Positions 1,745 to 48,367 of a DNA stretch of 49,598 nucleotides are shown in pieces; the first letter of the stretch is position 1; the number at the start of each line of letters is the position of its first letter. Source of the stretch: Minisyncoccota bacterium (GTDB taxonomy: Bacteria > Patescibacteriota > Minisyncoccia > Phycocordibacterales > UBA5272); NCBI GenBank assembly GCA_035905815.1, contig JAMIGE010000033.1, forward strand, positions 1 to 49,598, read 5' to 3'. The notes under the pieces are model-generated. The model had not been told where the DNA came from. It made no database searches and worked only from the letters and a program-made list of their open reading frames with translations. The position numbers and the translations under genes were made by a program.

Positions 1745-1772
1745 TTGACAAAAGCAATAAAAGTAGTATACT
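1745..1772 (+). promoter_or_regulatory. Sigma70-type promoter TTGACA-16-TATACT for the 1812 gene
   Basis: TTGACA lies at 1745-1750 and TATACT at 1767-1772, with a 16-nt spacer. AAGGAG at 1800-1805 sits 6 nt before the ATG at 1812. Confidence 0.55.
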
Positions 1773-1811
1773 TATAAGGAATCATCAAATCAGTTAAGAA
1801 AGGAGATTCTG

Positions 1812-3686
1812 ATGAAATCTTTGAAAACAATTATTATTACGGTCGCGCTTGCGCTCGTGACGGTCGCGCTTGCGCTCGTGGGCATGGTATCGCAATCTGC
1901 ATACGCAGCATGCGAAGGGTATAACACTGGCGGTGTAATTGACTGCTATACAGCAGCTGATCAAATCCCAGTGCAGGGTAAAGCCTCATCAGACCCTGAT
2001 TTTCAGAGTCTGGAGTCAGTGGTAAAGGCGGAAATGATCCGCATGGGTGTGGGTAATACCAGCATAGCAATTCGCTATAGCAATACCGTGGCTGACGCGG
2101 CGGCGAACAAAAGCCGTCTAGTCTATAATCGCGCATTCGGGCCATCTGTGTCTGACTGGCGTAGCCGCAGTAGTTACGGATTCATGACACAATCCGAGGA
2201 CGCTGTTGCGAATTACGCCAGTATGACCAAGGCAATTACCGAGGCATTGCTTGCGAAATTCATCGCAAATGGATGGGTGTCGACGTCTGACAATGTATTC
2301 TGCCTGCCTGGTAATACCACAGCAAAATGCTGGATCACTGGATACACTGCAAACATCGAGCCGCGCTATGCACGGATTACTGTGCAGAATGTGCTAGACT
2401 TTAAGATTGGCCAGGACGGCAACCAATTATCAGAAGGTGTGAGTCACGCTGCCATTCAAGCCATACTAGACCAGCGAAAAATGGCCAGTGACCCTGGTAC
2501 TGATTACATGTACAATCAATTTGGACATCAAATGCTGGGCGTACTGCTTGAGATAGCTGCGCTACAGGCTACTGGAGTGCAGCGGAGCTTTGAAGAGCTG
2601 GCGCACACATACCTGACCCGACCATTAGGCATCCGTGATGCGGACATGTTCCAAGTCAAGGATAATCGCCCACAATTCCGCGATCCGCGTACTGTGTGGT
2701 ACGATTCGAATTCTTTTGGAGCAAGTCGCTATGATGATGGTAAAGTCGGTGCATCTGCAGACGTTAACCTTAAAGCAGAGAATTTTACTTCTGCTGCTGG
2801 GTGGGCTGGTACGGCCACTGCGCTAGCCAAGTTCGCATCTGTTTACGGGTGTGGAATTGGTAGCGGCGCACTGGATGGTGTGAGCTCAATCTGTTACAAT
2901 TTCAGAGCGAATAACTCTGGAGTGTTTACAGTGGTGATCATAGTCAATAAAATGTGGGAAAGTATTGAGGTTGCGAAAGCTGGAAATAGCTTTGCTGCTG
3001 TAGAACCAATAGCTGCAAAAGTATTTGACATCTTGGTTAGCAAATCATCTTGGCCGAGTGAAGACTTGGAAAAGGTGAGTGCGGCGGCGATTTTAGCTAT
3101 GGAATACAAGCTGATTCGACCCGAGAATGGTCGCGAAGCTTACTTCCGTACTGGTAGCCAAACAGAAATTGATGGTTTGGCGGCGGCGCTAGCTAATGAT
3201 CCGAATTATCTGCTGAAGCCCACGACAAACAGCTTCCATGCATGGCCCAAGGGCTATACTGGATATGATGTCAGGCGGTTCATATTTGACATTAAAAATC
3301 AAAATGGACAGTCTATTGGCGCTAGCCACTGGTACGGGATTGACGCAAAGTCGTCTGATGGCATCAATTACACTCAATTCTTCCATGGGCTCAACCCCTT
3401 TCGGAAGTCTGATCAGGGGTTAATGTTCGAAGCGGCCACGTTCAGCGCATTCCCTCTTAATTCTGATGGTACGTGTCCGACTCCGGTCGGGGATACGACA
3501 GGAAAGGTCCCTCAAGGACTAATCCCGCTGTACTCTATCTACAACGATGCATATGCCCAGTCTCAAGCTGGAGCAATCGCGTTCAATGATGGTAATCATC
3601 GATTCACAACCCAGCAGTCAGTTGTCGACGAGATGCTGGCCAAAGGTTGGAAATTAGATGGCAAGGTCTACTGCGTACTGCCGTAG
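1812..3686 (+). CDS. Secreted beta-lactamase-fold serine hydrolase (PBP/class-C-like) with a C-terminal repeat region
   Basis: A signal peptide ends at AYA-A. The S-x-x-K motif SMTK is at aa 137-140 (nt 2220-2231). AAGWAGTATALAKF resembles the family's third conserved block. The C-terminal IPLYSIYN...GNHRFTTQQSVVDEMLAKGWKLDGKVYCV resembles the HFYT...GW...EG repeat known as DUF5648. The gene is GC-richer than its neighbours. Confidence 0.7.
   Translation: MKSLKTIIITVALALVTVALALVGMVSQSAYAACEGYNTGGVIDCYTAADQIPVQGKASSDPDFQSLESVVKAEMIRMGVGNTSIAIRYSNTVADAAANKSRLVYNRAFGPSVSDWRSRSSYGFMTQSEDAVANYASMTKAITEALLAKFIANGWVSTSDNVFCLPGNTTAKCWITGYTANIEPRYARITVQNVLDFKIGQDGNQLSEGVSHAAIQAILDQRKMASDPGTDYMYNQFGHQMLGVLLEIAALQATGVQRSFEELAHTYLTRPLGIRDADMFQVKDNRPQFRDPRTVWYDSNSFGASRYDDGKVGASADVNLKAENFTSAAGWAGTATALAKFASVYGCGIGSGALDGVSSICYNFRANNSGVFTVVIIVNKMWESIEVAKAGNSFAAVEPIAAKVFDILVSKSSWPSEDLEKVSAAAILAMEYKLIRPENGREAYFRTGSQTEIDGLAAALANDPNYLLKPTTNSFHAWPKGYTGYDVRRFIFDIKNQNGQSIGASHWYGIDAKSSDGINYTQFFHGLNPFRKSDQGLMFEAATFSAFPLNSDGTCPTPVGDTTGKVPQGLIPLYSIYNDAYAQSQAGAIAFNDGNHRFTTQQSVVDEMLAKGWKLDGKVYCVLP
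1840..1881 (+). repeat. In-frame 21-bp tandem duplication inside the signal-peptide h-region
   Basis: cggtcgcgcttgcgctcgtga (1840-1860) is followed by cggtcgcgcttgcgctcgtgg (1861-1881), 20 of 21 nt identical. This encodes TVALALV twice. Confidence 0.95.
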
Positions 3687-3723
3687 ACACTTTAGCGATG
3701 GTACTCCGCTTAATGAGTACTAA

Positions 3724-3747
3724 CCCCCGCATGCGGGGGTTTTATAT
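3724..3747 (+). terminator. Intrinsic terminator
   Basis: The palindrome CCCCCGCATGCGGGGG (3724-3739) is followed by TTTT. Confidence 0.8.
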
Positions 3748-3869
3748 TTATACATGAATTATTTAAATCATTTTAAAGATCAAAGAGTACTCTCGCATAA
3801 AGGACATTGCAATTACAAATGTCTTTTATGTGTCTTTTATGCTATAGCTAAAGTATTACTGCGCAAAAT

Positions 3870-4094
3870 TTAAATGTTTGCCAAGGCTATTGATACTACT
3901 TTACTTTTATCAACAACTATGGAATCTAGTATTTCATCATCGCAAAAGTTGAATGCAACTTCAATGCGGCCATCCTTTGTGTGATAAAGCCTGCCGACAC
4001 ATTCATACAAATTATCACCCATAAGGATTTTAATTTTACATAATTTGTTTTTGTATATAAAAAGCTTAATGTAATTTAGGATCATATTTTTCAA
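3870..4094 (-). CDS. Hypothetical protein (start uncertain)
   Basis: A 74-aa AT-rich ORF that overlaps the upstream gene by 29 nt. Internal Met residues at about 4083 or 4023 may be the real start. No motif recognised. Confidence 0.35.
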   Translation of the reverse strand: MKNMILNYIKLFIYKNKLCKIKILMGDNLYECVGRLYHTKDGRIEVAFNFCDDEILDSIVVDKSKVVSIALANI

Positions 4095-4617
4095 TAGTTA
4101 GAATAAATGACTTTGGTATAATATAGTACTGAGGAGGTTCTTTAGGATGATGTTGGGATGGGAGAGGGTGTACCCTTATTGTCTCTGGGTGTCTAATTAC
4201 TATACAACTTTCATAGACGGCAAATAATTGTCCACGCGTTTGCATAATGCTACAGTCTCTTCTGTTTAAATTAGCAACATGCACAACATCTTTCCAGGTT
4301 ATTAGAATAGTAGTTTCAGGAATTAAAAGTGTATCATATTTATTATTAAAGTAGCTATTTTTGTAATCACTATCATTATCAATTACTGCTCCTGAGGGCA
4401 AAACTAATCCCTCTATGATCTTTTCATCATCATTTGTATTGTGATTTATTTTTATAACATATTCAACGATATAATCGTTATCATCATTTCTGCTTATACA
4501 TCCATATGCTATATGTCTTTTAAGTGAGAGGGTCTTTAAATAATTTACATCTAATGATATATCAGATGTATTATACATTGCATCTATGTATTCAATCTTT
4601 TGGAAGTATTTAATCAT
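4066..4617 (-). CDS. Hypothetical protein
   Basis: A 183-aa very AT-rich ORF with no recognisable motif. Confidence 0.5.
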   Translation of the reverse strand: MIKYFQKIEYIDAMYNTSDISLDVNYLKTLSLKRHIAYGCISRNDDNDYIVEYVIKINHNTNDDEKIIEGLVLPSGAVIDNDSDYKNSYFNNKYDTLLIPETTILITWKDVVHVANLNRRDCSIMQTRGQLFAVYESCIVIRHPETIRVHPLPSQHHPKEPPQYYIIPKSFILTIEKYDPKLH

Positions 4618-4806
4618 ATTATAACTTTAGCATGTTATATCAAAACAAATCCACCATGTCTAGCTGGGGCAATTTAATGAACAGTTATTGGCCTATTTTA
4701 CTATTGACAAACTACTTATAATCTGATATACTTGGGACATAGTCTTGGATATGGTATTCAGGGCAGCTATTTCAAAACCGGGGCATGTGCCTCAGAAAGA
4801 TACAAA

Positions 4807-5349
4807 ATGAAGTCAAATATCGCTCTCACAGTTATTAACGAGCAGGAGAACGGGCGCATACCAGTAATGATCAAGTCCATCGGACTTGTCATTGCGGGGC
4901 TGGCAATTGCCCTCCTCATGACCGTGTTTGCGCCCGCGCATGCGAATTCAGTCAACCAGCCTGTGGCGTACAGCTGCGGCCCGGACTGCATACTGCCAGC
5001 GCTACAACCACCTGAGACCGACATGGCATATATGGTGAATAGTGGACGGGCAGAGCGTAGCTCATCTGCGTATCATGTGCAAATGGGTAAGCCAGCCAGC
5101 GTCGACATCGCGTCGACAGACGAATGTTTTGTGTCGATCTCGCCGTTTAACAGCGGTAAGTCGCTGACAAAAGTTGCCAATTATCACCTCTACAACGTAG
5201 AGGTAGATATTCAGGCAATCGGTGCGGCCCGCGGCATGTGCCTGCCGGAGGTCAAGCATACGCTGAAGCTCGCCTGCGGTACGAAGAAGGTGAGTGTCGA
5301 CCTTACGTTCTTCGACACATGCCAGATCATGGTCCGGCCGAAGAAGTAA
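4807..5349 (+). CDS. Secreted or membrane-anchored hypothetical protein
   Basis: In-frame ATG at 4807; the track starts at a TTG at 4732. The hydrophobic segment IGLVIAGLAIALLMTVFAPAHA-NS looks like a signal peptide. The gene is GC-rich relative to its flanks. Confidence 0.55.
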   Translation: MKSNIALTVINEQENGRIPVMIKSIGLVIAGLAIALLMTVFAPAHANSVNQPVAYSCGPDCILPALQPPETDMAYMVNSGRAERSSSAYHVQMGKPASVDIASTDECFVSISPFNSGKSLTKVANYHLYNVEVDIQAIGAARGMCLPEVKHTLKLACGTKKVSVDLTFFDTCQIMVRPKK

Positions 5350-5369
5350 TAGAAATTCATCGGCATCAC

Positions 5370-5399
5370 ACACCCCTCAGCGAGGGGTGTATTTGTTTG
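5370..5399 (+). terminator. Intrinsic terminator
   Basis: ACACCCCTC (5370-5378) pairs with GAGGGGTGT (5382-5390), followed by ATTTGTTTG. Confidence 0.75.
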
Positions 5400-5452
5400 T
5401 ATTATGACAGCAATCGCTTGCATACATTAATCATTTATGATATAGTGATTAT

Positions 5453-5608
5453 GTACTACTGAGGGCCCAGCGTTGCGTGGCCTTCGCATGCGGTGGTACG
5501 TTGGGGTAAGTCCGCCTCCCCGTCGGCACCCACAAATCTGCACTTACTGCTCACCTCCCCCCGAGCGTGCAGGTTATGGGGTGGCCGAATGGTCACCCCT
5601 TTTCTTTT
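5453..5608 (+). ncRNA. Candidate small RNA of unknown family, about 155 nt, GC-rich
   Basis: Promoter: TTGCAT (5418-5423), 17-nt spacer, TGaTATAGT (-10 at 5441-5446). Terminator: GGGGTGGCC-GAAT-GGTCACCCC (5578-5599) followed by TTTTCTTTT. Internal hairpins are GGGG(5503-06)/CCCC(5518-21), and CTGCAC(5538-43)/GTGCAG(5567-72) with loop ACCTCCCCCC (5553-5562). The transcript start is only estimated. Confidence 0.55.
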
Positions 5609-5782
5609 GCAAGATTTCTAAATTAATAGTGATCTGTATTAGTTTCATACCAGCGCAGTTAAGCGCTAGTGGTTATACACTTTCGGACTGGGCCCAGGCC
5701 ATGCTTCGTAAATATAAGGTGATTTAATACAAGTGGAGTAGGTCTTTCAAATTGCAAATATATGTGTTATAATATAGCTCAT

Positions 5783-5858
5783 GCGCGAATAGCTCAGCTG
5801 GTAGAGCACTCGACTGATACTCGAGCGGTCCCAAGTTCGAATCTTGGTTCGCGCACCA
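5783..5858 (+). tRNA. tRNA-Ile (anticodon GAT), CCA encoded
   Basis: Manual cloverleaf: GCGCGAA / GCTC-AGCTGGTA-GAGC / CTCGA-CTGATAC-TCGAG / CCAAG-TTCGAAT-CTTGG / TTCGCGC-A-CCA. TGTTATAAT (-10 at 5768-5773) lies 9 nt upstream. Confidence 0.95.
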
Positions 5859-5867
5859 AAGTAAAAC

Positions 5868-6006
5868 AATCCCTCACGGGGTTGTTTTACTTTGGTGCGA
5901 GCCGGACCGCGACTGGCGGGAGGCGGGGTAGCGAGCCTGGCCAGCAGGACAGGACTTGTGACCACCAATTCGAAATCCCTCACGGGGTTGTTTTACTTTG
6001 GTGCGA
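5868..6006 (+). repeat. 33-bp direct repeat (5868-5900 and 5974-6006) flanking a 73-bp GC-rich segment
   Basis: aatccctcacggggttgttttactttggtgcga occurs twice, 106 bp apart. The first copy is the 3' arm of a 20-bp hairpin (5854-5897) that begins inside the tRNA-Ile CACCA end. Confidence 0.9.
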
Positions 6007-6091
6007 TTTATATTTGTAAAACTAAATTACAATCATAGAATATGTGAATATGCTCTAGTGACAAATTTTTTATTTTTGTTATTATATAGTT

Positions 6092-6256
6092 ATGATTATA
6101 AACAAGCTTAGTAGAAAAAGTTTCGCTTCTGAAAAGTATACCTTACCCATATCTTCGTATTTAAAAGAGGAGATTGATAGTTCAAGAAAATTGTTTGCAA
6201 ATAAAACTTCGAAAACATATACTAGTAAAAGTATTTTGAAGTCGCTTGGGTTGTAA
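6092..6256 (+). CDS. Putative antitoxin (54 aa) of the ParE-like toxin
   Basis: My own translation gives MIINKLSRKSFASEKYTLPISSYLKEEIDSSRKLFANKTSKTYTSKSILKSLGL. It is below the track size cutoff. It ends 12 nt before the toxin ATG, the usual antitoxin-first layout. No family motif recognised. Confidence 0.4.
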   Translation: MIINKLSRKSFASEKYTLPISSYLKEEIDSSRKLFANKTSKTYTSKSILKSLGL

Positions 6257-6268
6257 TTTCTATTATGT

Positions 6269-6553
6269 ATGTACAAAGTAGTATATAACGATATATCGAG
6301 AAAGGATTTATCGGATATTTTGTTTTTCTATAAAAATATAGATCAATTAATATTGCAAAGTTTTTTGGAAGAGGTTTGCAAAATTGAAAAAGTATTATCG
6401 AATACACCAGAAATTTACAGGATAAGGTATGAGTCAGTAAGGCGTGTCAATTTTATTAATTTTCCATTTTGCTTATTTTATCAAATTGATGGTAAGTTTG
6501 TTCAGATTCTTAAAATTGTTCACCAAAGCCGTGATGTTGTATTTTGGCCATAA
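6269..6553 (+). CDS. parE: ParE/RelE-family type II toxin
   Basis: The 94-aa protein ends FPFCLFYQIDGKFVQILKIVHQSRD. This matches the ParE pattern (aromatic-x-i-x-Y ... v-x-I-l-x-i-x-H-x-x-R-D). Confidence 0.7.
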   Translation: MYKVVYNDISRKDLSDILFFYKNIDQLILQSFLEEVCKIEKVLSNTPEIYRIRYESVRRVNFINFPFCLFYQIDGKFVQILKIVHQSRDVVFWP

Positions 6554-6660
6554 TAATTCGAAAATTAGTCTTTTCCCCAAAGCTGGATTTTGAAAAAATT
6601 TGAGAATATGTTATATTTAATTGACGCTAAGCTTTGACCATTTGGGAAGACTAGTAGAAA

Positions 6661-6738
6661 ACTGTTTTCTAAACAGAATATGCCACTTTAACTCAGTTGG
6701 CAAAAGATTAATAGACAACGGTTTTGTAAACAGAATAT
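6661..6738 (+). repeat. Degenerate tandem copies of the tRNA-Thr 5' half and anticodon arm
   Basis: agaatatgccacttta[a/g]ctcagttgg is found at 6675-6700 and 6732-6757 (period 57). ac[t/g]gtttt[c/g]taaac is found at 6661-6674, 6718-6731 and 6765-6778. The upstream copy cannot form a D-stem. Confidence 0.85.
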
Positions 6739-6814
6739 GCCACTTTAGCTCAGTTGGTAGAGCAACGGTTTTGTAAACCGTAGGTCGTCAGTTCAAGCCT
6801 GACAAGTGGCTCCA
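6739..6814 (+). tRNA. tRNA-Thr (anticodon TGT), CCA encoded
   Basis: Manual cloverleaf: GCCACTT / GCTC-AGTTGGTA-GAGC / ACGGT-TTTGTAA-ACCGT / GTCAG-TTCAAGC-CTGAC / AAGTGGC-T-CCA. Confidence 0.95.
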
Positions 6815-6821
6815 GAAGAAT

Positions 6822-7553
6822 ATGAAAATAGACTATACCAAGTATGCGTTAGCAATGATAGTCACTACAGCACTATTTGGATCTGCGTATTTCGCAAGTA
6901 GCTATTTCATGACAAGGCGTCTATCAAGCATAGACACAATACAAGAGAACTTGCATATAGAGGATATGTCCAATCAAGTGCAATATGACCTATTGCAAGA
7001 GGCGTCATGTGCGAATGTTACATCATCTTCGATATTATCTGAAGATTTGGCCAAGACAGGTGACAAGCTGTCATATACCGAGTCAGAGCTAGGTGCTACT
7101 AATTCTAATGTGTTGTATTTGAAAAAGTATTATTCGCTACTGCAAATCAAGGATTACCTTTTATCTAAAAAGTTAGCGGAGAAGTGTGCTAGCAAGAAGA
7201 CAATATTTATTATCTATATGTATAGTAACGGCAAGGATGCAGAAGGCCATGATAAGTGTAATCGCTGTTCGGATCAGGCGGTGATACTGACTGCTCTACG
7301 AGAGAAGTATCCAGAGCTACGAGTATACACTTTTGACTATGATTTGGATCTGTCAGCAGTAGAGACACTAAAGAAAATATATAGAATACCGGCCACTTTC
7401 CCAGCGCTGATTGTACAGGATAAGCTATACACTGGATTCCAAAGTCTAGAGACATTGGATACATTGATGCCAGACAATTTGGTAGAGGCTACTTCAACTG
7501 CTACTACCACCGCCACTACTACAATTAAAAGTGCGACAACAACCAAGAATTAA
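6822..7553 (+). CDS. Membrane-anchored protein with a possible thioredoxin-like CxxC domain
   Basis: There is an N-terminal TM segment. CNRC is followed by ...IPATFPALIV, which resembles a cis-Pro loop. The tail is Thr/Ala-rich. The fold assignment is tentative. Confidence 0.55.
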   Translation: MKIDYTKYALAMIVTTALFGSAYFASSYFMTRRLSSIDTIQENLHIEDMSNQVQYDLLQEASCANVTSSSILSEDLAKTGDKLSYTESELGATNSNVLYLKKYYSLLQIKDYLLSKKLAEKCASKKTIFIIYMYSNGKDAEGHDKCNRCSDQAVILTALREKYPELRVYTFDYDLDLSAVETLKKIYRIPATFPALIVQDKLYTGFQSLETLDTLMPDNLVEATSTATTTATTTIKSATTTKN

Positions 7554-7558
7554 TTGAT

Positions 7559-8827
7559 ATGCAAGTATTAGATACAATATTACACGCGATAATGTATCCA
7601 TTTATTTTTATATCTATATATTTCCAAGTTTTCATGCTGCTTAACTTTATGGGCGGTAGGGACAAAATGAAGAAGGAAGAAGAGGAAATGGATGAGAATT
7701 TTGAGCCGTCTGTTACATTCCTAGTGCCATGTTGGAATGAAGAAAAGACACTTGGTCCTACAATAGAATCTATATTGGGATTAAATTATGACAAGAGTAA
7801 ACTCAAAATCATTATTATTGATGATGGAAGTAAAGACAATACATATACCATTGCTAAAGGATTTGCAGAGGTAAATTCAAACATTATAGCAATCACCAAG
7901 GCAAATGGTGGCAAGCACACAGCTCTGAATGAGGGGTTAAGGCATGTAAATACTGACCTCGTTGCCTGCCTGGATGCAGATAGCTTCTTGCACCCTAATG
8001 CAATGATAGTGGCAGCTCAATATTTCAAAGATACAAACATCAAAGCTCTAGCTAGTTGTATGCAAATCAAGTTGCCAGTAGGGTCGTGGATACAGCGTAT
8101 ACAGCAGATCGAGTATATGATATCAGTGTTCTGGAGGAAGAGTTATTCTAATATCGATGCAGTGCAGGTGATGCCTGGCCCCTTTTCAGTATTTAGAAAG
8201 TCAGTCTTTGATGAGCTAGGTGATTATAAGCCAGCACATAATGCAGAAGATTTTGAAATGACACTGCGCCTCCATTATAATGGCTACAAAATTGCTAATG
8301 CTCACAAGGCATATGTATATACTGTAGGCCCTGATACTGTTAAAGGTCTTGTAAAGCAGAGAATTAGATGGGTGCGTGGATTCCTAGAAAATGCTTGGGA
8401 CTATCGCGAGATGTTCTTCAATAGTAAGTACGGTCATTTTGGAATATTCACTCTGCCGATCGGTATTGTATTCGTTTTTTATATTTTAATCGCAATTGCC
8501 TACGCGGTGCTAAGCTTCATCAAGGTAAATTATATGCGTATTTATGATTATACTTTGGTCGGATGGCATTGGCCTCGATTTCAATTTGAGCCATTTTATG
8601 TGAACACAGATACATTTCTATTTTTATCCATATTTGTATTCACATTGCTCGGGTGCGTGCTGTATGCTGCGCGCAATATTACAGAGAGTCGCGACGAATT
8701 TGTTCTCAACTTAGCGTTATATATTTTCGTGTATCCATTTATTGTCCCCTTCTTTATCTTCACAGCTGTATTTAAATTCTTAACTAATGCTAAGAATGTG
8801 TGGGCACTACAAGACAATAAGGCATAG
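7559..8827 (+). CDS. Family-2 glycosyltransferase, processive polysaccharide-synthase type (PgaC/IcaA/NodC-like)
   Basis: The protein contains FLVPCWNEE, IIIDDGSKDNT, LDADS and the Q-x-x-R-W motif (QRIRW). TM helices flank the catalytic domain. Confidence 0.8.
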   Translation: MQVLDTILHAIMYPFIFISIYFQVFMLLNFMGGRDKMKKEEEEMDENFEPSVTFLVPCWNEEKTLGPTIESILGLNYDKSKLKIIIIDDGSKDNTYTIAKGFAEVNSNIIAITKANGGKHTALNEGLRHVNTDLVACLDADSFLHPNAMIVAAQYFKDTNIKALASCMQIKLPVGSWIQRIQQIEYMISVFWRKSYSNIDAVQVMPGPFSVFRKSVFDELGDYKPAHNAEDFEMTLRLHYNGYKIANAHKAYVYTVGPDTVKGLVKQRIRWVRGFLENAWDYREMFFNSKYGHFGIFTLPIGIVFVFYILIAIAYAVLSFIKVNYMRIYDYTLVGWHWPRFQFEPFYVNTDTFLFLSIFVFTLLGCVLYAARNITESRDEFVLNLALYIFVYPFIVPFFIFTAVFKFLTNAKNVWALQDNKA

Positions 8828-8829
8828 TA

Positions 8830-8858
8830 TTGACTATTTATAGTTGCCATAGTATGAT
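8830..8858 (+). promoter_or_regulatory. Promoter TTGACT-17-TATGAT for the small membrane ORF
   Basis: TTGACT is at 8830-8835 and TATGAT at 8853-8858. Confidence 0.5.
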
Positions 8859-8893
8859 AAACACGTTTTAGTTTATTTGAAAGGTGGAATTAT

Positions 8894-9007
8894 ATGGCTT
8901 CAATTTTTGGATTCGTATTACTTGGAATTGTAATCATAATCCTAGCTTGGAAGACTGTAGAGCGGTGGCTCCTGTCTTTCAAGAAGGAGCGTAACAAGGA
9001 CGAGTAG
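8894..9007 (+). CDS. 37-aa single-pass membrane micro-protein
   Basis: My own translation gives MASIFGFVLLGIVIIILAWKTVERWLLSFKKERNKDE. It is preceded by AAAGGTGG and has its own promoter. It is below the track cutoff. Confidence 0.4.
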   Translation: MASIFGFVLLGIVIIILAWKTVERWLLSFKKERNKDE

Positions 9008-9106
9008 CATCATTTGGTACTAAAAGCACTCGAAATATCCCAGACATCTGTCTAAAAACAGTGCTGGGTGTCGGGCCAGTTCTTTCAAATCAAAAGGAAA
9101 TAAATT

Positions 9107-9895
9107 TTGAATCAATCACAAAATGCCGTCATGAGTGACGACGGCCTGTACGCATACGGGGAATTGGAGTCAAGCTACGGCTACTTGTCGGACTACAAAC
9201 CAATGCGAGGCGCATCATTTGAAACAATGCTCGCAGACCTAGAAAGGCAAGCAAAGGTTCTTGACTCTTTCTTTGGAGTCAGTACCAAGTTCGACATTGA
9301 CTTCGCAAGAAAGATTTGGGGCAATTTGCCATCATGGGTTGAAAAGCTGTTTCTGTCTATCGATAAAAATGTACTCGCGCCTGATTACAATCAGGAATTG
9401 CAAGCCTGTTTGAATGCTCTAAAGCAAACCAGAGACAGTGAATTCTACAACTACCGTGAATGTGAGCTTGGTCCTGATCAGCTCCGTCAGTCTGAGCGTT
9501 CAGTACTGCACGAGGAAAGGCTAGCAGCAATGCAAAAGCCTTTTAAATTGATTGTTGAGCCTGGCAACTTTGGTGTACGATGGCCGATCGATGGTACAAA
9601 TAACCACATAACTGCTTCAGTTCGTCGAGCGCTTATAAAGATGGCTCAAAATGAATCAGGTACTGGTGCAAAGAAAGTAAGCACATGGCTCATGACTCAT
9701 CCTGGGCGTCTCCGGCACTTCAGTGATCTTTGGATTGATTGCGGTGGTGACGAGTTTGCTCCGCTTGCCGATAGCGACTTCTCGATGTCTCCGTACTTCG
9801 GGTTCTGTGGCCCCGGGGTCGAGTTAGACGCCACCGATGTTGATAGTCCTGACGGTAGTTTTGGTTTGGCTTCGGTGTGTCTTCCGCAAGGCTAG
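9107..9895 (+). CDS. Hypothetical protein, GC-richer; contains a GGDEF pentapeptide
   Basis: A 262-aa ORF with a TTG start; an alternative ATG is at 9131. DLWIDCGGDEFAPL falls at nt 9743-9757 and FDIDFARKI at aa 62-70. No full domain recognised. Confidence 0.55.
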   Translation: MNQSQNAVMSDDGLYAYGELESSYGYLSDYKPMRGASFETMLADLERQAKVLDSFFGVSTKFDIDFARKIWGNLPSWVEKLFLSIDKNVLAPDYNQELQACLNALKQTRDSEFYNYRECELGPDQLRQSERSVLHEERLAAMQKPFKLIVEPGNFGVRWPIDGTNNHITASVRRALIKMAQNESGTGAKKVSTWLMTHPGRLRHFSDLWIDCGGDEFAPLADSDFSMSPYFGFCGPGVELDATDVDSPDGSFGLASVCLPQG

Positions 9896-9958
9896 AACTC
9901 CTACTTTGGGATCTTGAGTCTTTTGCAAAAAGACTCTTGCTTTATCCTTGAACCTTCT

Positions 9959-10001
9959 GAGGGTTTGTTAAATTTACTTTTAGCAAACCCTCTTTTATTT
10001 T
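9959..10001 (+). terminator. Intrinsic terminator
   Basis: GAGGGTTTG (9959-9967) pairs with CAAACCCTC (9984-9992), followed by TTTTATTTT. A second hairpin lies at 9916-9936. Confidence 0.7.
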
Positions 10002-10035
10002 GTCAGAAAATGTAGTCATGATATAATATTAATAT

Positions 10036-11346
10036 ATGAAGAAGACTATTTTAATTACTGGAGGCGCAGGATATGTAGGCGCTATGCTATGTGATCAGTT
10101 TGCCAAGCGTGATGATATAGAAACTATAATTGCAATAGACAAAGAGCCCGAAACCGAACTTACTCTTAATAATCAAAACAAACATAAAATAATATATATA
10201 CAATCTAATTTATCTGATGAAGTCGTGGCAAGTGTGAGGGTGGGAGATGTCATAGACACCCTGGCGCATGATGGTAAATTACATAATCATTTAACTCATA
10301 ATGATAAAATGAGGCAAGAGCTTTCTCATTCTGATCCTAGTAAAGCCGTAGAGGTAGCCGATACCTGGGAAAGTGTTGCGATTAAATACAAGCCTACAAT
10401 TGTAATACATACCGCTTGGCAAATTCGCGAAATATATGGTGATAGACCGCTGTCATATAAATGGAATATTGATGGCTCGGATAGAGTATTCGATTATGCA
10501 TTCAATTTTAAGAATAAGTTTTCTGATAATTTAAATAATGGAGTAGAGAAGATGATTTACTTTAGCACAGTAGCATCATACGGGGCATTTGCTGATAACA
10601 AAATGGATTACTTTTTCAAAGAGTCCGATAAATTTAGAGAGACAAAATATTTATATGCAGAAGAGAAGCGCTGGACAGAGGAGCATTTAGAGAAAAAGTA
10701 TGCACACTATCTCACAACTATATCAAGTGCTGATGCTGTAGGTAAAAGCTCGCATAATCATAATGCAGATACTGTATCTGCACAGTCTAATTCAAATAGT
10801 AAAGTGCAAGTATTCATACTTCGCCCTGCAGCTATCACAGGGCCAAGAGGCAGATATGATCGTATACGTTTTGGCTTACAAAGTGCTTTGGCAGGGAATT
10901 TAGATAAAAGCTTTGTAAATAGAATAGTGACAGCACTTACTAGCTTTGTACCTGTAACACCAAAATGGCTTCGCCAATTTATACATGAGGATGATGTGAC
11001 TGATATCGTAGCGCTACTAGGACTAGATGACAGTGTGAAGGGCGACTACGAAGTATTTAATATTTGCCCTCCAGGAGAGACAGTACGCGGTGCTGATATG
11101 GCAAAGGCAGTAGGTAAAAGTATGGTAATGATACATCCATATATGGCGCGGGCTGCATTCTTCGTACTTTGGCATTTGTCCAGGGGTAAAATACCAACAG
11201 GAGAAGGTGCTTGGAAAGGCTACAGCTACCCAATTGCTGTGACTGGCGAAAAGCTTACCACTCAGTATGGATATGTGTACAAGTATAAATCCAAAGACGC
11301 ATTCAAAGACAATGAAGGCAGATACAAAGTTATTTTAAATAATTAG
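10036..11346 (+). CDS. NAD-dependent epimerase/dehydratase (extended SDR) with insertions
   Basis: The N-terminus ITGGAGYVG is a GxxGxxG motif. YAEEK is the Y-x-x-x-K motif. TGaTATAAT (-10 at 10022-10027) lies 8 nt before the ATG. Confidence 0.75.
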   Translation: MKKTILITGGAGYVGAMLCDQFAKRDDIETIIAIDKEPETELTLNNQNKHKIIYIQSNLSDEVVASVRVGDVIDTLAHDGKLHNHLTHNDKMRQELSHSDPSKAVEVADTWESVAIKYKPTIVIHTAWQIREIYGDRPLSYKWNIDGSDRVFDYAFNFKNKFSDNLNNGVEKMIYFSTVASYGAFADNKMDYFFKESDKFRETKYLYAEEKRWTEEHLEKKYAHYLTTISSADAVGKSSHNHNADTVSAQSNSNSKVQVFILRPAAITGPRGRYDRIRFGLQSALAGNLDKSFVNRIVTALTSFVPVTPKWLRQFIHEDDVTDIVALLGLDDSVKGDYEVFNICPPGETVRGADMAKAVGKSMVMIHPYMARAAFFVLWHLSRGKIPTGEGAWKGYSYPIAVTGEKLTTQYGYVYKYKSKDAFKDNEGRYKVILNN

Positions 11347-11483
11347 GCTGTTTGCGCTTGGCAATATTTGCAGTTTGTAGTTGAATATTGTAGGATGATG
11401 TAAACGCTCTTTAAAGTATAACTACTATATGATAGTGCTTAATCGAGCTGATACAACTTTAAATCAAAATTGGAAGGTATATT

Positions 11484-12392
11484 ATGTCTAGAAATAATTC
11501 CAAAAGTGCAATGCTTGGAAAAGTTATGCAGTGTCTAGTCGCAATGTCGTCTGGGGACTTACGAGTCTTACTTTTCATAGTCAAAGCTCTGGCGAGTAAA
11601 AAGGGTAAAGAACTCTATGAGCTTCGGCAAGGACTGTTAGAGATTGTAGACCCAGAAGATGATGGCACTCAAGAAGCCTCAGTGACTGCAGAACAAACTC
11701 CAAAAGCGGCTGATATCAATCGAACCACTAGCGCTAACCCAAATGCGTCTTGTCCAAATGGTAAGTCGAGACCTTCAACTCGCGGAATAGATGCTTCTAC
11801 TGCCATACCCAACGATTCAGATTCTCGAAAGGGTAAGAATGAAGGAAAAGTAGAAGCTGCCCCATTTAGAAAAGTTAAAGTTGACGATAGCGTTGTCGTT
11901 TTTTCGCGAAAAGAAGTCGCTGATAATGTTTCAGCGGCTCTTAATCTAAAAAGGGATAATAATTATCAACTGCCTCAATTTATTACGGGTAATGGTGTAG
12001 CTTTTTCATTTCATTACAACTACTCTGAGTATTGTGGTGGTGTAGAAGAGAACAAAAAGGCGGCGGTAGGGTCCTTAACCACTGAGACACCTTTCAATTA
12101 CCGTGATTGTGAAAGGCTTGTTTCTGGAGATAAGAAGGTCTCAATCGATGTCGGCCTCTCTGGGCTCTTGGGATATTTAATATCTCTCGGTGGCCAAGCT
12201 GAAGTTACTCGCTATTTTGCATATCATAAACAAGATGGCGGCCAAGGAGGCAGATTGTTCAGGGCTGTGCGATGTCATGATGGTACTCCAGACCCAAAGA
12301 TTACTTATGTTATTACTCATCTTCCTGTTGATTATGTAATAGAAAGCGGCAGTAAAATCTTATTTTTGCCTGATATGCATATAAGCAATTAA
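11484..12392 (+). CDS. Hypothetical protein, GC-richer
   Basis: A 302-aa ORF preceded by GGAAGG. No motif recognised. Confidence 0.55.
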   Translation: MSRNNSKSAMLGKVMQCLVAMSSGDLRVLLFIVKALASKKGKELYELRQGLLEIVDPEDDGTQEASVTAEQTPKAADINRTTSANPNASCPNGKSRPSTRGIDASTAIPNDSDSRKGKNEGKVEAAPFRKVKVDDSVVVFSRKEVADNVSAALNLKRDNNYQLPQFITGNGVAFSFHYNYSEYCGGVEENKKAAVGSLTTETPFNYRDCERLVSGDKKVSIDVGLSGLLGYLISLGGQAEVTRYFAYHKQDGGQGGRLFRAVRCHDGTPDPKITYVITHLPVDYVIESGSKILFLPDMHISN

Positions 12393-12420
12393 AAGTATTT
12401 AGCTGTAAATCTTAAATTAA

Positions 12421-12449
12421 AAACCCTTCTTTTGAAGGGTTTTCTCTTT
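12421..12449 (+). terminator. Intrinsic terminator
   Basis: AAACCCTTC-TTTT-GAAGGGTTT is followed by TCTCTTT. Confidence 0.8.
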
Positions 12450-12686: not shown

Positions 12687-14213
<1,527 letters not shown>

Positions 14214-14492: not shown

Positions 14493-14528
14493 AATATAAA
14501 AACAGCCTCACAAATTAATATGAGGCTG
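14493..14528 (-). terminator. Intrinsic terminator of the lipoprotein gene
   Basis: CAGCCTCA (14503-10) pairs with TGAGGCTG (14521-28). The A-run on the plus strand gives a U-run on the minus strand. Confidence 0.7.
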
Positions 14529-14551
14529 ATAGCATCATGCTGTAGTTGTTG

Positions 14552-36364: not shown

Positions 36365-36448
36365 AATTTGACTTAAATAATTATATATGTTATATATAAT
36401 TGGAAAGCTTTAATTCTAAAGCTAGCTCATAATTCACAAAGGAGTAAA

Positions 36449-36745: not shown

Positions 36746-36759
36746 ACTTAATCTAATTG

Positions 36760-36784
36760 ACACTGGCAACATGCCAGTGTTTTA
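36760..36784 (+). terminator. Intrinsic terminator
   Basis: ACACTGGC pairs with GCCAGTGT, followed by TTT. Confidence 0.7.
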
Positions 36785-36835
36785 AATTGTGTATATGCTA
36801 AATGACTTTTAAATATTAAATGCTATAATACTTAT

Positions 36836-41355: not shown

Positions 41356-41475
41356 GCGCTAGTCCTTATTAGTACTAGAACTTTATTTTAGCAAAAATAT
41401 CAAATTAGATACATATTGACAAAATCCCATAAAGTAGTATAATTAGATTAATTGAACTTTTAGGAGAGAACTATT

Positions 41476-41856
41476 ATGCAAACTGCATACTCGCTTCCAA
41501 CAAATTTGTTTGGCGCAAGTGGAAAGCTAGACTACGATGTGGCAATTGCCTTCGCTTGTAGTGGTGATAAGGCAGAGCGACATGCGAAATGGAGTCTTTT
41601 GAAAAGGACACTTCACCAATCACTTTTTGAAGCACTGAAGGCGGAGGCAGCTCGCCGTCGCAAGTCAGCTGCGAGGAAGAAAAGCTCTTGCAAAGCAGCA
41701 AGACCTCGCGCAAAGCGAAAAGCGTTTGAAAGCGAAATCCAAGGAATTGAAGATCAAATTGAGTTCCTTGAGCTGAAGAGGCGGGTTGTGGAAGTGGAAA
41801 TGGAGATGTACTTTCTTTCGCTGGAAGCGAATGAGCACATCTGTGCAATTGATTAA
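41476..41856 (+). CDS. Hypothetical basic protein, GC-richer
   Basis: A 126-aa ORF. AGGAG (41462-66) lies 9 nt before the ATG. There is an Arg/Lys-rich centre, and the C-terminus carries SLEANEH. Confidence 0.5.
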   Translation: MQTAYSLPTNLFGASGKLDYDVAIAFACSGDKAERHAKWSLLKRTLHQSLFEALKAEAARRRKSAARKKSSCKAARPRAKRKAFESEIQGIEDQIEFLELKRRVVEVEMEMYFLSLEANEHICAID

Positions 41857-41870
41857 AAATGTACGACCTG

Positions 41871-41898
41871 AAGGCCGGGGAACCGGCCTTTTCTTTTT
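41871..41898 (+). terminator. Intrinsic terminator
   Basis: AAGGCCGG-GGAA-CCGGCCTT is followed by TTCTTTTT. Confidence 0.85.
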
Positions 41899-42675: not shown

Positions 42676-42712
42676 AACTAAAATCCTCGCACTTGCGAGG
42701 ATTTTAGTTTTG
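42676..42712 (+). terminator. Intrinsic terminator
   Basis: AACTAAAATCCTCGC-ACTT-GCGAGGATTTTAGTT is followed by TT. Confidence 0.8.
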
Positions 42713-42767
42713 GTATAGAATGTATTAAGGCTCGCGATGGCGAGTATTTACTTTTAAGGAGAAGAAA

Positions 42768-43052
42768 TTGTCTACGCATACGAAATCAAGAATTTTTGAC
42801 AAACTAGAAAGGCAGCTAAATCCAATGCTATGGTCGGAATTATTAAATAAAGATGCCGATACGATAGTGCTATGGAGAATAGACGAAAAGTGGAGACTTG
42901 TCGCAGCAACTCTATGGATGGAAGAGGATAACTTCAAAAAGCTTGGCAATAGTCCGAGCGCAGGAGACCTTGCGCGATTAGTAGTTAACTGGCAAAGGTC
43001 GAAAGACTTGACCACCGACCCAAAGATGGACAAACTGTCCACAAAGATTTAG
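42768..43052 (+). CDS. Hypothetical protein, GC-richer
   Basis: A 94-aa ORF with a TTG start 6 nt after AAGGAG (42756-61) and its own terminator. Confidence 0.45.
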   Translation: MSTHTKSRIFDKLERQLNPMLWSELLNKDADTIVLWRIDEKWRLVAATLWMEEDNFKKLGNSPSAGDLARLVVNWQRSKDLTTDPKMDKLSTKI

Positions 43053-43098
43053 TTTACTCAATGTCGATATAGTTTGTTTTCTATTTAAATTGAATTAC

Positions 43099-43127
43099 AA
43101 AAGCGGACGCTAGTCCGCTTTTTACTT
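43099..43127 (+). terminator. Intrinsic terminator
   Basis: AGCGGAC-GCTA-GTCCGCT is followed by TTTT. Confidence 0.8.
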
Positions 43128-47273: not shown

Positions 47274-47305
47274 AATCGCTCGCGCTCGCGAGCGATTTTG
47301 TGTTA
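47274..47305 (+). terminator. Intrinsic terminator
   Basis: AATCGCTCGC pairs with GCGAGCGATT, followed by TTGTGTT. Confidence 0.7.
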
Positions 47306-47441
47306 TTACGACTATAGTAAAATTGCTTCTATGTGACATTATGTTTAATTTGCTGAAAAGCTGAAAAGAGGTCTTATTTGCAAATATTTAACAATTATAG
47401 TATTGTTTAGCTTGTTCTTTATAAACATGAAAGGAAGCTCT

Positions 47442-47744
47442 ATGATCACTTTGAATTTCCCACACGCTCAGAATGGGCATAAAGAAGAAGTATATGACGA
47501 CACTAATCCAGTAGCGCGCAAATCACTATGGGAAAAAGTTAAAGCATTTCTGGGTAGTGGTAAAAAACTGATACTGACAACATCTGAGGGTGGCAAAAAG
47601 GTTACAAGGCTAATTCAAGAATATGACCCCAAGACAAATGAATGGGTTTTGGCTGATCCTAACATAGAAGAGCCAAATCGTACCGTGACTGTGACCGCAA
47701 GAAGTACTTCACCTACACACCTGAGACCAATAACCGGAGGATGA
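47442..47744 (+). CDS. Hypothetical protein
   Basis: In-frame ATG at 47442, 5 nt after AAAGGAAG. The track start is at 47403. Confidence 0.5.
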   Translation: MITLNFPHAQNGHKEEVYDDTNPVARKSLWEKVKAFLGSGKKLILTTSEGGKKVTRLIQEYDPKTNEWVLADPNIEEPNRTVTVTARSTSPTHLRPITGG

Positions 47745-47747
47745 TGA

Positions 47748-48323
47748 ATGTCTGGACAAAGACTTCGACGTTCTCAGCGAGCTTTTGCGAAAGCTATGCT
47801 ATCTCTAGGTATTGAAGATCAGAGCGACAAAGAGCTATTCAACATTTTTCAACCTGAATCTGAAATCCATATTTCTAGTGCAAGGAAGAGACCTACCAAG
47901 GGTGAAACTTTTGTCTCACTTATTATCAGATCTTTAGAAGCAAATGAGCATAGCCATTCTGTTAAAGCTGAAAGGCGTGCTCAGAAGCTACTTCGAATGC
48001 ATATATCCAGAAAGCAGTGGGAGTCATATTTCATCAGTGGCGCATTTGTGGAATATTCAAGTTTTGGTAACTATTACATTTTTAGAAAGGGTTTCCCAAC
48101 AATTCTCTGCAAAGTAATTACTAAGAAGGGAAATAAAAAGCTGATTATTCCACAGTATGCACTATGTGGACATACGGGATTGTACACAATGGGTACATTC
48201 TCTGGTGGACTATGTCCAAGTGATGATGTGCTTATGCACCTTACATCTATGAGAGTCAATGAAGAAGAATACATAAATTCTTGTAACAAGCACAAGCTTT
48301 CGCAACCACAAAGTGGTTGCTAA
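47748..48323 (+). CDS. Hypothetical protein (contains SLEANEH)
   Basis: A 191-aa ORF. GGAGG (47736-40) lies 7 nt before the ATG. It starts 3 nt after the upstream stop, so the two form an operon. Confidence 0.55.
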   Translation: MSGQRLRRSQRAFAKAMLSLGIEDQSDKELFNIFQPESEIHISSARKRPTKGETFVSLIIRSLEANEHSHSVKAERRAQKLLRMHISRKQWESYFISGAFVEYSSFGNYYIFRKGFPTILCKVITKKGNKKLIIPQYALCGHTGLYTMGTFSGGLCPSDDVLMHLTSMRVNEEEYINSCNKHKLSQPQSGC

Positions 48324-48337
48324 TTTCAAGAGGCAAG

Positions 48338-48367
48338 CCGCAACGGAAAACGTTGCGGTTTTTATTT
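48338..48367 (+). terminator. Intrinsic terminator
   Basis: CCGCAACG-GAAAA-CGTTGCGG is followed by TTTTTATTT. Confidence 0.85.

Follow-up and report, generated by a model that had tools for sequence, protein, structure and literature searches.

Here, we describe a 49.6-kb stretch of DNA from a Minisyncoccota bacterium (contig JAMIGE010000033.1; hereafter the window), in which accessory units led by Shine–Dalgarno (SD) motifs lie between housekeeping genes and in which the 16S rRNA lacks the CCUCC anti-SD sequence. The window has a GC content of 0.397 and carries one full-length bacterial 16S gene and four tRNAs; a whole-window Rfam scan at gathering scores returned nothing beyond these. The housekeeping set, typical of a small genome, comprises genes for a GT2 glycosyltransferase, an epimerase-like protein, MurB, a class I aminoacyl-tRNA synthetase (aaRS), GrpE, DnaK, ParB, HPF, a peptidyl-prolyl isomerase (PPIase), Fmt, Def, a DEAD helicase, a radical-SAM enzyme (rSAM), a flippase, TIM, PGK, a sigma factor, an M48 protease, L5, RsmI, MurA, UvrC, and a TypA-like GTPase. 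The nearest relatives of the aaRS are found in metagenome-assembled genomes of Paceibacteria/Parcubacteria, i.e., of the Candidate Phyla Radiation (CPR), at no more than 74% amino acid identity; the exact aaRS sequence had no record. An alternative genetic code with TGA as a sense codon was ruled out because it did not coherently lengthen the open reading frames (ORFs), and the standard code fits. The accessory units are named c1 to c12 after the twelve units picked out by an earlier examination of the letters alone (the sequence-only reading); c6 contains ORFs a, b, and c, and c12 contains ORFs a and b.

The core genes carry no SD motif. They are characterized by a −10 hexamer, often TG-extended, that ends 6–11 nt before the ATG. 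At 10000–10038 on the plus strand, for instance, the epimerase ATG (10036) follows 8 nt after the end of TTGTCA-16-TGnTATAAT, and the same leaderless-type pattern is present at MurB (15691), the aaRS (19047, minus strand), Fmt, rSAM, the flippase, TIM (36836), the sigma factor (38734), M48 (40305), and others. A scan found such start-adjacent −10 boxes at ∼16 core genes, and the number rises to 19 of 31 once the weaker TG-extended boxes of L5, RsmI, orf183, and UvrC (ATG 45464) are added by hand; nine of the boxes have the TG extension, and nearly all of the genes concerned start with ATG. With these boxes, the core looks leaderless, and we infer from the promoter spacing that most core genes are transcribed into leaderless mRNAs. 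The remaining core genes would have AT-rich leaders without an SD or would be operon-coupled without one; GrpE, DnaK, the DEAD helicase, and TypA are leadered and lack an SD, as do the operon-internal core genes (GT2, PGK, PPIase, and others). Two gene starts were revised: UvrC more likely begins at the ATG at 45464, in leaderless configuration, than at the GTG at 45449, and the last gene of the window begins at the ATG at 48421 and encodes a TypA/BipA-like GTPase rather than EF-Tu.

The accessory units are built differently. None of their 15 ORFs has a start-adjacent −10 box, and neither does any SD-bearing gene; where the scan found a promoter, it lies ∼30–75 nt from the start codon. Strong matches to the promoter consensus precede c1, c2, c3, c5, c8, c10, and c11, with perfect or near-perfect TTGACA/TATAAT pairs at c5 (15569–15541), c10 (41416–41443), c1 (1745–1772), and c2 (4704–4732). 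All gene starts were inspected over the 30 nt that precede them, and AGGAG or GGAGG occurs 4–9 nt before nine ORF starts, namely c1 (1812), c6b (19753), c6c (20100), c7 (GTG 23529), c8 (26126, minus strand), c9 (36449), c10 (41476), c11 (TTG 42768), and c12b (47748). Weaker motifs of the GGAA, AAGGA, or GGGAG types precede seven further starts, those of c3, c4, c5, c6a, and c12a and those of orf191 (28502) and orf232 (25045, minus strand), two genes outside the earlier list. Thus, the proposal of the sequence-only reading that most units have AGGAG or AAGGAG 4–9 nt before the start is borne out, and so is its statement that c2 has no SD motif upstream. In the gene table, an SD and a leaderless-like start are mutually exclusive (Fisher p = 2e-5), SD motifs are associated with the absence of any Pfam or NCBIfam family (Fisher p = 3e-5; 14 of the 16 SD-bearing genes belong to no known protein family), and they are associated with non-ATG starts (Fisher p = 0.04). 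Because the operon-internal accessory ORFs c6b, c6c, and c12b carry an SD and neither leadered nor operon-internal core genes do, the SD marks the accessory class and not leadered genes generally. Altogether, these findings support a separate class of accessory transcription units that stand alone between housekeeping genes, bear SD motifs, and are mostly orphans. The contrast between a predicted leaderless core and leadered accessory genes, which had been overlooked, is sharper than any difference in GC content.

The sequence-only reading had defined the class partly by its composition. The units do have a higher whole-gene GC content (mean 0.450 vs 0.379 for the backbone); however, this test is circular since the units were picked by eye for GC, and it is codon position 2, i.e., amino acid composition, that shifts most. 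At fourfold-degenerate sites (GC4), where the pooled backbone has a value of 0.275, only c1 (0.46), c2 (0.63), c5 (0.49), and c8 (0.42) deviate strongly (binomial p ∼0.001 or lower); c3, c6b, c10, and c11 are marginal, while c4, c6a, c6c, c7, c9, c12a, and c12b are indistinguishable from the backbone or lower, and SD presence is not significantly associated with GC4 deviation (p = 0.11). GC-richness is, therefore, the trait of a subset and does not define the class. The selection by eye, the shift at codon position 2, and the deviation of only four units at fourfold sites are what speaks for there being no real class at all, the units being ordinary genes whose GC differences reflect amino acid composition and whose SD-like motifs are chance purine runs, and the number of intergenic AGGAG copies (8 in 6.4 kb) is indeed close to the ∼6 expected from composition. 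However, seven of these eight copies lie in the SD position, i.e., in sense orientation 4–9 nt before an ORF start, where ∼0.2 would be expected from an estimate of eligible positions, and permutations of AGGAG with the same composition occur there only 0–3 times. Together with the exclusion of start-adjacent −10 boxes, the tie to orphan status, and the conservation of the motifs in relatives described below, this makes chance a very improbable explanation.

The 16S rRNA gene (12687–14213, plus strand; Rfam score 1340 bits) ends in the 3′ tail GGATTAATTCCAAA (14200–14213), which reads GGAUUAAUUCCAAA where GGAUCACCUCCUUA is expected; aligned to GGAUcACCUCCUUu, the consensus in Rfam, the tail has AUUCC in place of CCUCC. 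Thus, only U1536, U1537, C1538, and C1539 (E. coli numbering, assigned by us) are left for SD pairing. The loci around epimerase homologs of relatives supplied the 16S tails of 14 of them, the 16S gene lying 5–8 kb downstream of the epimerase homolog, and CCUCC is missing from all 14. The tails differ among themselves (…AUAUCC…, …AUUUCA…, …AAUUCA…), and since all lack CCUCC and yet vary, the loss is old and the region weakly constrained. The sequence-only reading had pointed to the paradox of SD motifs alongside a 16S rRNA without CCUCC, and the tail alignment agrees. The loss itself is not new: Among Parcubacteria, only 48% were found to have an anti-SD motif (Tsurumaki et al. 2022, PMC9297842). 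The absence of CCUCCU is one trait of the anti-SD-lacking Parcubacteria subgroup of that study, the other being an overlap with the uL1-lacking group, and the organism may belong to it. The 16S gene stands alone, being followed by a terminator (14431–14444) and the convergent c5 and by no 23S or 5S gene; in the relatives, the 16S gene likewise lies a few kilobases downstream of the epimerase homolog.

The motifs in front of the accessory genes are of the canonical type. With a canonical tail, the mean predicted duplex energy is −7.6 kcal/mol for the accessory upstream regions vs −1.9 kcal/mol for core genes; with the organism's own tail, the values are −4.3 vs −2.1 kcal/mol. The motif is, thus, canonical rather than fitted to the ribosome of its own host, and the SD/anti-SD paradox stands. 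All 13 accessory motifs include GGA, followed in 12 of the 13 by a purine.

Whether such motifs are retained can be read from close relatives, in which seven units (c1, c2, c7, c9, c10, c11, and c12) are in place. In locus L161, the order is orf610 (minus strand), c1, c2, then a D-Ala-D-Ala ligase gene (ddl) and tRNA-Ile, with c1 84% identical; in L164 (L5 97% identical), it is tRNA-Val, c10, L5, c11, RsmI; in L165 (L5 90% identical), it is sigma factor, orf105, orf226, M48, c10, L5. In L175, c7 adjoins orf232; in L176, c9 lies between the flippase and TIM; and in L177, c12a precedes c12b. The proteins diverge faster than their neighbors, with identities of 39 to 45% for c10 vs 90 to 97% for L5 in L164 and L165, 69% for c11 vs 97% for L5, and 93% for c9 in L176 vs 99% for the genes beside it. 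By contrast, the leaders are kept. First, three lineages conserve the promoter and 18-nt leader of c10, AATTGAACTTTTA(A)GGAG, one of them having a 1-nt indel; the spacers differ, and the fourfold identity is 0.28 to 0.60. Second, the ∼95 nt before the TTG of c11 are ∼94% identical, and the SD, spacer, and TTG (AAGGAGAAGAAATTG) are identical, vs an identity of 0.46 at fourfold sites. Third, the c7 homolog in L175, at 57 to 62% amino acid identity, has GGGGAG-N7-GTG, so that (A/G)GGAG-N7-GTG is kept. Fourth, AAAGGAA of c12a and GGAGG of c12b are both kept in L177, at 83% nucleotide identity. Finally, ∼95% of positions in the SD-less promoter/leader region of c2 (4699–4809) match L161, vs 0.39 at the fourfold sites of c2. 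Because leaders and SD motifs are conserved above fourfold sites, the 5′ untranslated regions (5′UTRs), including the SD, appear to be under purifying selection, and by parsimony the lineage in which the SD is selected would be one that lacks CCUCC.

These data also bear on the alternative that the motifs are nonfunctional relics. On this account, the genes came from SD-using, GC-richer donors, their AGGAG motifs, terminators, and composition were carried along and have yet to decay, and the host ignores the motif; we regard this as doubtful for the class, although it could apply to c1. Homologs of c1 with 74 to 76% amino acid identity are found in L162 and L163, on contigs with a GC content of 0.53 to 0.56, where they neighbor an HrpA helicase (685 bits to E. 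coli HrpA), SBP_bac_5, an endonuclease/exonuclease/phosphatase-family protein, and a VapBC pair; this context is proteobacterium-like. The GC content of c1 is ∼0.50 in L162/L163 among neighbors at 0.54 to 0.61 and 0.49 in the window among genes at ∼0.38, with a fourfold GC of 0.43 to 0.48 in all four copies. In a test for amelioration, strong-to-weak and weak-to-strong substitutions were balanced, with counts on the window branch too small to be informative. The fourfold identity of c1 between the window and L163 is 0.61, which exceeds that of backbone genes in close relatives (0.51 for L5 and 0.38 for M48, both vs L165; c2 has 0.39 vs L161), and this argues that c1 was exchanged across phyla relatively recently. 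The SD and spacer of c1, AGGAGATTCTGATG, are identical in the window, L161, and L163, and the homolog in L162 has lost the motif. Similarly, c8 resembles proteobacterial DesA, being 50 to 54% identical to proteobacterial desaturases. These sequence comparisons thus support horizontal exchange for c1 and make it plausible for c8. The relic account further draws on the better fit of the motif to a canonical anti-SD than to the organism's own tail and on surveys in which organisms without an anti-SD are generally also without SDs (PMC6107228). However, c7, c10, and c11 keep the motif and c2 its SD-less leader in relatives in which fourfold identity, where measured (c2, c10, and c11), is only 0.28 to 0.60; most SD-led units (c6a, c6c, c7, c9, and c12) have the fourfold composition of the backbone; and most homologs occur only in close relatives and point to no donor. 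For units other than c1, conservation, therefore, argues against relics.

We suggest that two expression architectures operate side by side and that the SD motif on the accessory units is selected and functional, a reading to which we assign a probability of roughly 0.55. Beside a core expressed largely from leaderless mRNAs, about twelve accessory units would each be expressed from a sigma-70-type promoter through a 5′UTR of ∼25–125 nt with an AAGGAG-type motif 4–9 nt before the start and would end at an intrinsic terminator, with GTG and TTG starts tolerated and with products that are lineage-restricted, fast-evolving, and in several cases secreted or membrane-bound. The units would have entered at different times, c1 at least and c8 probably by exchange with SD-using bacteria that brought their own composition with them, and would then have persisted in place across the close relatives examined. 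The motif may help the 30S subunit to load on leadered mRNAs. As the leading guess, it would do so by residual in-register pairing of GGA(G/A) with U1536-U1537-C1538-C1539, in which GGAG or GGAA would form three Watson–Crick pairs plus a G·U or A-U pair in the register of the canonical SD helix; an alternative route would be a contact independent of the anti-SD.

Several points weigh against this explanation. Pairing with the organism's own tail amounts to 3–4 bp and about −3.6 kcal/mol; the AAGGAGA motif, with a G at the fourth position in ∼10 of 13 cases, suits CCUCC better than the organism's own UUCC; and C1539 is lost in half of the relatives' tails. The CCUCC-less tails were read in 14 other relatives, and those of L161, L164, L165, and L175 to L177, in which the leaders were compared, are not among them. 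Constraints other than translation, e.g., on mRNA stability or on the binding of a regulator, may account for the conserved leaders; the rest of the genome may hold another rRNA copy; the leaderless status of the core is deduced from the spacing of promoter consensus sequences; and the start codons of c3, c4, and c7 are uncertain. Moreover, in 57 other AT-rich Paceibacteria loci, SD motifs are enriched only ∼2-fold over permuted controls, and the SD-linked GC shift there (+0.058 at GC3, the third codon position) is no better than that of genes with control motifs; the lineage of the window is at the rich end of a clade-wide but modest SD phenomenon. The weak pairing, the preference for G over the better-pairing A, and the loss of C1539 in half of the relatives leave room for a reader that is independent of the anti-SD. 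In this variant, which we hold to be unlikely on balance, AAGGAG on accessory genes would be recognized by something other than CCUCC, e.g., a trans-acting RNA, a ribosomal protein, or a different part of the rRNA, and would form a separate, independently regulated translation channel for horizontally mobile or surface-related genes beside the leaderless core.

A canonical anti-SD could also be supplied from elsewhere, either by a second 16S gene outside the window, resulting in heterogeneous ribosomes, or by a trans-acting CCUCC RNA, again with a dedicated or regulated channel as the outcome. The exactly canonical motif and spacing would be explained in this way, and two types of 16S tail are known to coexist in Alteromonas (PMC6107228). 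The window, moreover, contains a candidate small RNA of ∼155 nt in a GC-rich segment (5418–5610; RNA 5453–5610) with a promoter (TTGCAT-17-TGaTATAGT) and a terminator (5578–5599) of its own, a predicted fold of −64 kcal/mol (z = −2.1), and two exposed CCUCC motifs, one (CACCUCCCCCC) within the loop of a hairpin and the other (CCGCCUCCCC) within sequence that is mostly unpaired. However, the loop complements GGGGGGAGGUG and not AAGGAGA, the RNA matches no Rfam family, and no copy was present in any relative locus retrieved, L161 having ddl at that site. The 16S genes that lack CCUCC in all 14 relatives lie near the same epimerase gene. Furthermore, CPR genomes usually have one rRNA operon. We, therefore, consider an anti-SD from elsewhere improbable.

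The region of the candidate RNA has been remodeled. In L161 (5078–6052), an intact ddl lies between c2 and tRNA-Ile; in the window, 5390–5727 retains only the last ∼28 codons of this gene (5641–5727), the remainder being replaced by the GC-rich RNA-like segment, so that "orf84" (5473–5727) is not a gene. Downstream, the 3′ end of tRNA-Ile lies within a 22-bp perfect hairpin (5852–5899), and a 33-nt direct repeat (5868–5900 and 5974–6006) flanks a 73-nt GC-rich insert (5901–5973); the region 5846–6006 looks like an att-type scar of integration at a tRNA. Beside tRNA-Thr, a segment with a GC content of 0.27 (6082–6553) contains a ParE-toxin gene (6269–6553) and a small upstream ORF on the opposite strand and is probably a toxin–antitoxin remnant or island. 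Between c1 and c2, an 850-bp AT-rich segment (3847–4698; GC 0.30) with minus-strand ORFs at 3870–4094 and 4066–4617 is missing from L161; at this site, the indel is the AT-rich piece and not its GC-rich neighbors.

The sequence-only reading had likened the units, which sit between housekeeping genes, to phage morons. Scans with the aaRS in a genome collection (80 loci, at most 74% amino acid identity) and with the epimerase in metagenomes (80 loci, at most 52%) gave loci with nearly no synteny and no accessory-unit proteins, which are uninformative on insertion; L077 was discarded as a syntenic relative, being rearranged and without the units. Informative are the family-level relatives L167 and L173, in which L5 is 72 to 75% identical, L5, RsmI, and MurA are contiguous with gaps of 24 and 90 nt (24 nt between L5 and RsmI in L167), and no homologs of c10 or c11 are present at the loci. 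This argues that c10 and c11 were inserted in the lineage of the window, loss on two occasions being less likely. Insertion between genes that are adjacent in relatives is seen for c11 and, less cleanly, for c10; for the other units, synteny is lost in more distant relatives. The moron-like picture fits c11 and, to a lesser degree, c10. The flanks of the units, however, are housekeeping genes and not a prophage or mobile element, and the units tested gave no phage link: c1 had no tblastn match in phage or plasmid collections, c3 and c7 have no relatives on viral contigs, and a PHROG search gave no credible match for the ten accessory proteins tested. As for the suggestion of recent acquisition, it applies to c1 only; c2, c7, c9, c10, c11, and c12 are in place in close relatives.

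Units of the same design occur elsewhere in the clade. The ribosomal-protein operon of L174 is broken after L24 by orf158 (GC 0.526 vs ∼0.45 in neighbors), with AAGGAG 7 nt upstream and its own terminator, and again before S8 by orf151 (GC 0.548); the L24/L5 and L5/S8 breaks (5376–9365) hold orphans and a PG_binding_1 gene, and S14 was not seen between L5 and S8. L016 (5973–6593) and L009 (7888–8445) have units of this kind as well, and SD-led minority genes among leaderless-type starts are present in L016, L009, L011, L017, L041, and L067, some with a GC content of 0.55 to 0.58. Diversity-generating retroelements (bAvd and reverse transcriptase) were observed in L167 (3158–4540), L168, and L009 (5994–7356); in L167, a GC-rich ORF (2002–2697; GC 0.53) adjoins the retroelement, which is another source of GC-rich islands in AT-rich genomes.

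Individually, the units are organized as follows. The c1 unit (1745–3741, plus strand) has the promoter TTGACA-16-TATACT (1745–1772), AAAGGAG at 1799–1805, a coding sequence (CDS) at 1812–3686 for a secreted beta-lactamase-fold protein, and a terminator at 3722–3741. The c2 unit (4704–5390, plus) has a promoter at 4704–4732, a ∼68-nt 5′UTR without an SD, a CDS at 4807–5349 whose product has a signal peptide or transmembrane (TM) segment, and a terminator at 5370–5390. The c2 5′UTR (4739–4809) contains a 19-codon upstream ORF (ATG 4751) whose TGA overlaps the c2 ATG (ATGA) and which a 2-nt deletion fuses in frame in L161, as well as a hairpin that reads GGGGCAUGUGCCUC in the window and GGGGUAUGCCCC in L161 and is kept despite changes in stem and loop. 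In the c3 unit (8830–9992, plus), a promoter at 8830–8858 is followed by a CDS from TTG 9107 or ATG 9131 to 9895, with doubtful SD assignment, and by terminators at 9916–9936 and 9959–9992; between promoter and CDS lies an unannotated 37-codon ORF (∼8893–9006) for a small TM peptide (MASIFGFVLLGIVIIILAWK...), with AAGGTGG upstream. Public gene calls start c3 at 9131 rather than 9107 and c4 at 11511 rather than 11484. The c4 unit (11434–12443, plus) has a −10-like TATGAT ∼50 nt upstream, GGAAGG 7 nt before ATG 11484 (alternative ATG 11511), a CDS to 12392, and a terminator at 12420–12443. The c5 unit (14503–15569, minus) has TTGACA-17-TATAAT at 15569–15541 (12/12 matches), AAGGA 5 nt before ATG 15493, a CDS at 15493–14552 for a low-complexity lipoprotein, and a terminator at 14528–14503. 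The c6 operon (19090–20358, plus) has a promoter at ∼19090–19125, ORFs at 19253–19741 (GGGAG), 19753–20088 (AGGAG), and 20100–20258 (AGGAG, GTG start), and a terminator at 20336–20358; its ∼125-nt 5′UTR contains a terminator-like hairpin (19140–19160) followed by TTAGTTT, and this leader could be an attenuator or of riboswitch type.

The c7 unit (23456–24336, plus) has a TTGACT promoter right after the DnaK terminator, AGGAG-N7-GTG at 23529, a CDS to 24305, and a terminator at 24310–24336. The c8 unit (25243–26207, minus) has a promoter at 26207–26180, AAAGGAG 6 nt before ATG 26126, a CDS at 26126–25326, and a terminator at 25268–25243; its product is a DesA-family membrane fatty-acid desaturase (366 bits to the NCBIfam model) with all three His boxes, as read from the translation. 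In the c9 unit (36395–36790, plus), a −10 TATAAT lies ∼48 nt upstream and AAAGGAG 4 nt before ATG 36449, and the CDS runs to 36745 and is followed by a hairpin (36761–36779) and UUUU. The c10 unit (41416–41891, plus) has TTGACA-16-TATAAT (12/12), the leader AATTGAACTTTTAGGAG, ATG 41476, a CDS to 41856, and a terminator at 41870–41891. The c11 unit (42693–43122, plus), between L5 and RsmI, has a promoter at 42693–42721, a 5′ hairpin at 42730–42745, AAGGAGAAGAAA-TTG at 42768, a CDS to 43052, and a terminator at 43099–43122. In the c12 operon (47395–48361, plus), a −10 TATAGT lies ∼40 nt upstream of c12a (47442–47744; AAAGGAA), which is coupled through TGATGAATG to c12b (47748–48323; GGAGG), and a terminator follows at 48335–48361. 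Rather than single genes, c6 and c12 are, thus, small operons of three and two ORFs, respectively. Hairpin-plus-T-tract terminators were scored after 11 of the 12 units, the c9 hairpin remaining unscored by the scan; the claim that each unit ends in its own terminator is, therefore, sound, except that terminators also follow 16S, DnaK, M48, L5, orf191, and orf178 and, while real, are not diagnostic of the class. No leader matched a known riboswitch or structured RNA in Rfam, and folding z-scores were only ∼−1.

Nearly all products had been taken to be secreted, membrane-bound, or orphan. Signal or TM segments were read from the translations of ∼6 of the 15 ORFs, c6b and c6c among them, and the ORFs other than these and c1, c2, c5, and c8 look soluble; the secreted or membrane part of the description is overstated. 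When 1.84 billion representative proteins were searched exhaustively and without profiles, 714 matches at E<1e-3 were obtained, of which 150 were listed. Nearly all of the listed matches are to c3, at 30 to 47% identity, making it a member of a large uncharacterized family (∼700 representatives) with conserved motifs that include SxYGYLSGY and DLWIDCxGDE. It has no Pfam match and no PDB match by profile, and nothing in PDB or BFVD matches its confident AlphaFold model (pLDDT 94, pTM 0.92; all E>0.5). Among the listed matches, c4 has no homolog except itself, and those of c7, c9, c11, and c12a come solely from close relatives, at 54 to 93% identity. A word-index protein search with 13 orphan proteins concatenated scored nothing; concatenation did work in the exhaustive representative search. 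In c10, the C-terminal EANEH(I/V)C(A/P)(I/V)(D/G) is the sole well-conserved part across three lineages (window 41821–41856; L164, L165); SLEANEH also occurs within c12b (47934–47954; c10/c12b BLASTP E = 0.03), and elsewhere, within ∼2 Mb of loci, the EANEH motif was found only in c10 homologs of L164 to L166.

Parts of this arrangement have known counterparts. Like group C of GeneMarkS-2 (Actinobacteria, Deinococcus), in which first genes are leaderless with a Pribnow box 6–8 nt from the start and other genes have SD ribosome-binding sites, the window has two start classes, here with a −10 box 6–11 nt before the ATG and with AGGAG 4–9 nt upstream, respectively. However, group C organisms have a canonical anti-SD, which the organism of the window lacks, and here the SD is on accessory or orphan units, while leadered and operon-internal core genes are without it. 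Like anti-SD-lacking Parcubacteria (PMC9297842) and other such lineages (Lim 2012; Amin 2018, PMC6107228), the organism has a tail without CCUCCU, common to all relatives examined; by contrast, SDs are also absent from the surveyed lineages, and here a minority of genes keeps a canonical, correctly spaced, and conserved SD-like motif. Phage morons are independent promoter–gene–terminator units between conserved prophage genes, often with deviant GC, and the accessory units share with them their own promoter and terminator, the placement of c11 between genes adjacent in relatives, and, in some cases, deviant composition; they differ in their cellular housekeeping backbone, in the lack of PHROG, phage, or viral-contig similarity for the units tested, and in their persistence in place among close relatives. 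Finally, in Bacteroidia, a largely SD-blind genome has strong SDs on a few genes, e.g., rpsU in Flavobacterium johnsoniae, which suggests a special regulatory channel. The anti-SD of Bacteroidia is present but masked by bS21/bS18/bS6, whereas here it has been mutated away, and rpsU is a ribosomal protein gene, whereas the SD-led genes here are orphan accessory genes. A full-text search of the literature found no description of leaderless starts or SD-led genes in CPR.

Thus, the group-C-like pair of start types, the loss of the anti-SD in Parcubacteria, and moron-like, partly acquired gene units are known parts, and the new element would be a canonical SD that persists under selection on an accessory class after loss of the anti-SD. 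The rule drawn from surveys is that SD motifs are absent where the anti-SD is absent (PMC6107228), and a CPR lineage without an anti-SD in which a defined set of genes has a conserved, correctly spaced canonical SD departs from it. In practical terms, gene callers misplace starts in such genomes, and a two-class start model (leaderless plus SD) is advisable for Paceibacteria. If the motif were an inert relic, the units would be ordinary gene islands in a group-C-like genome. If it is functional, either 3–4 residual base pairs suffice for SD-type start selection or the SD has a reader other than the 16S tail, and the finding would then bear on the evolution of translation initiation and on how newly acquired genes are expressed in streamlined symbionts.

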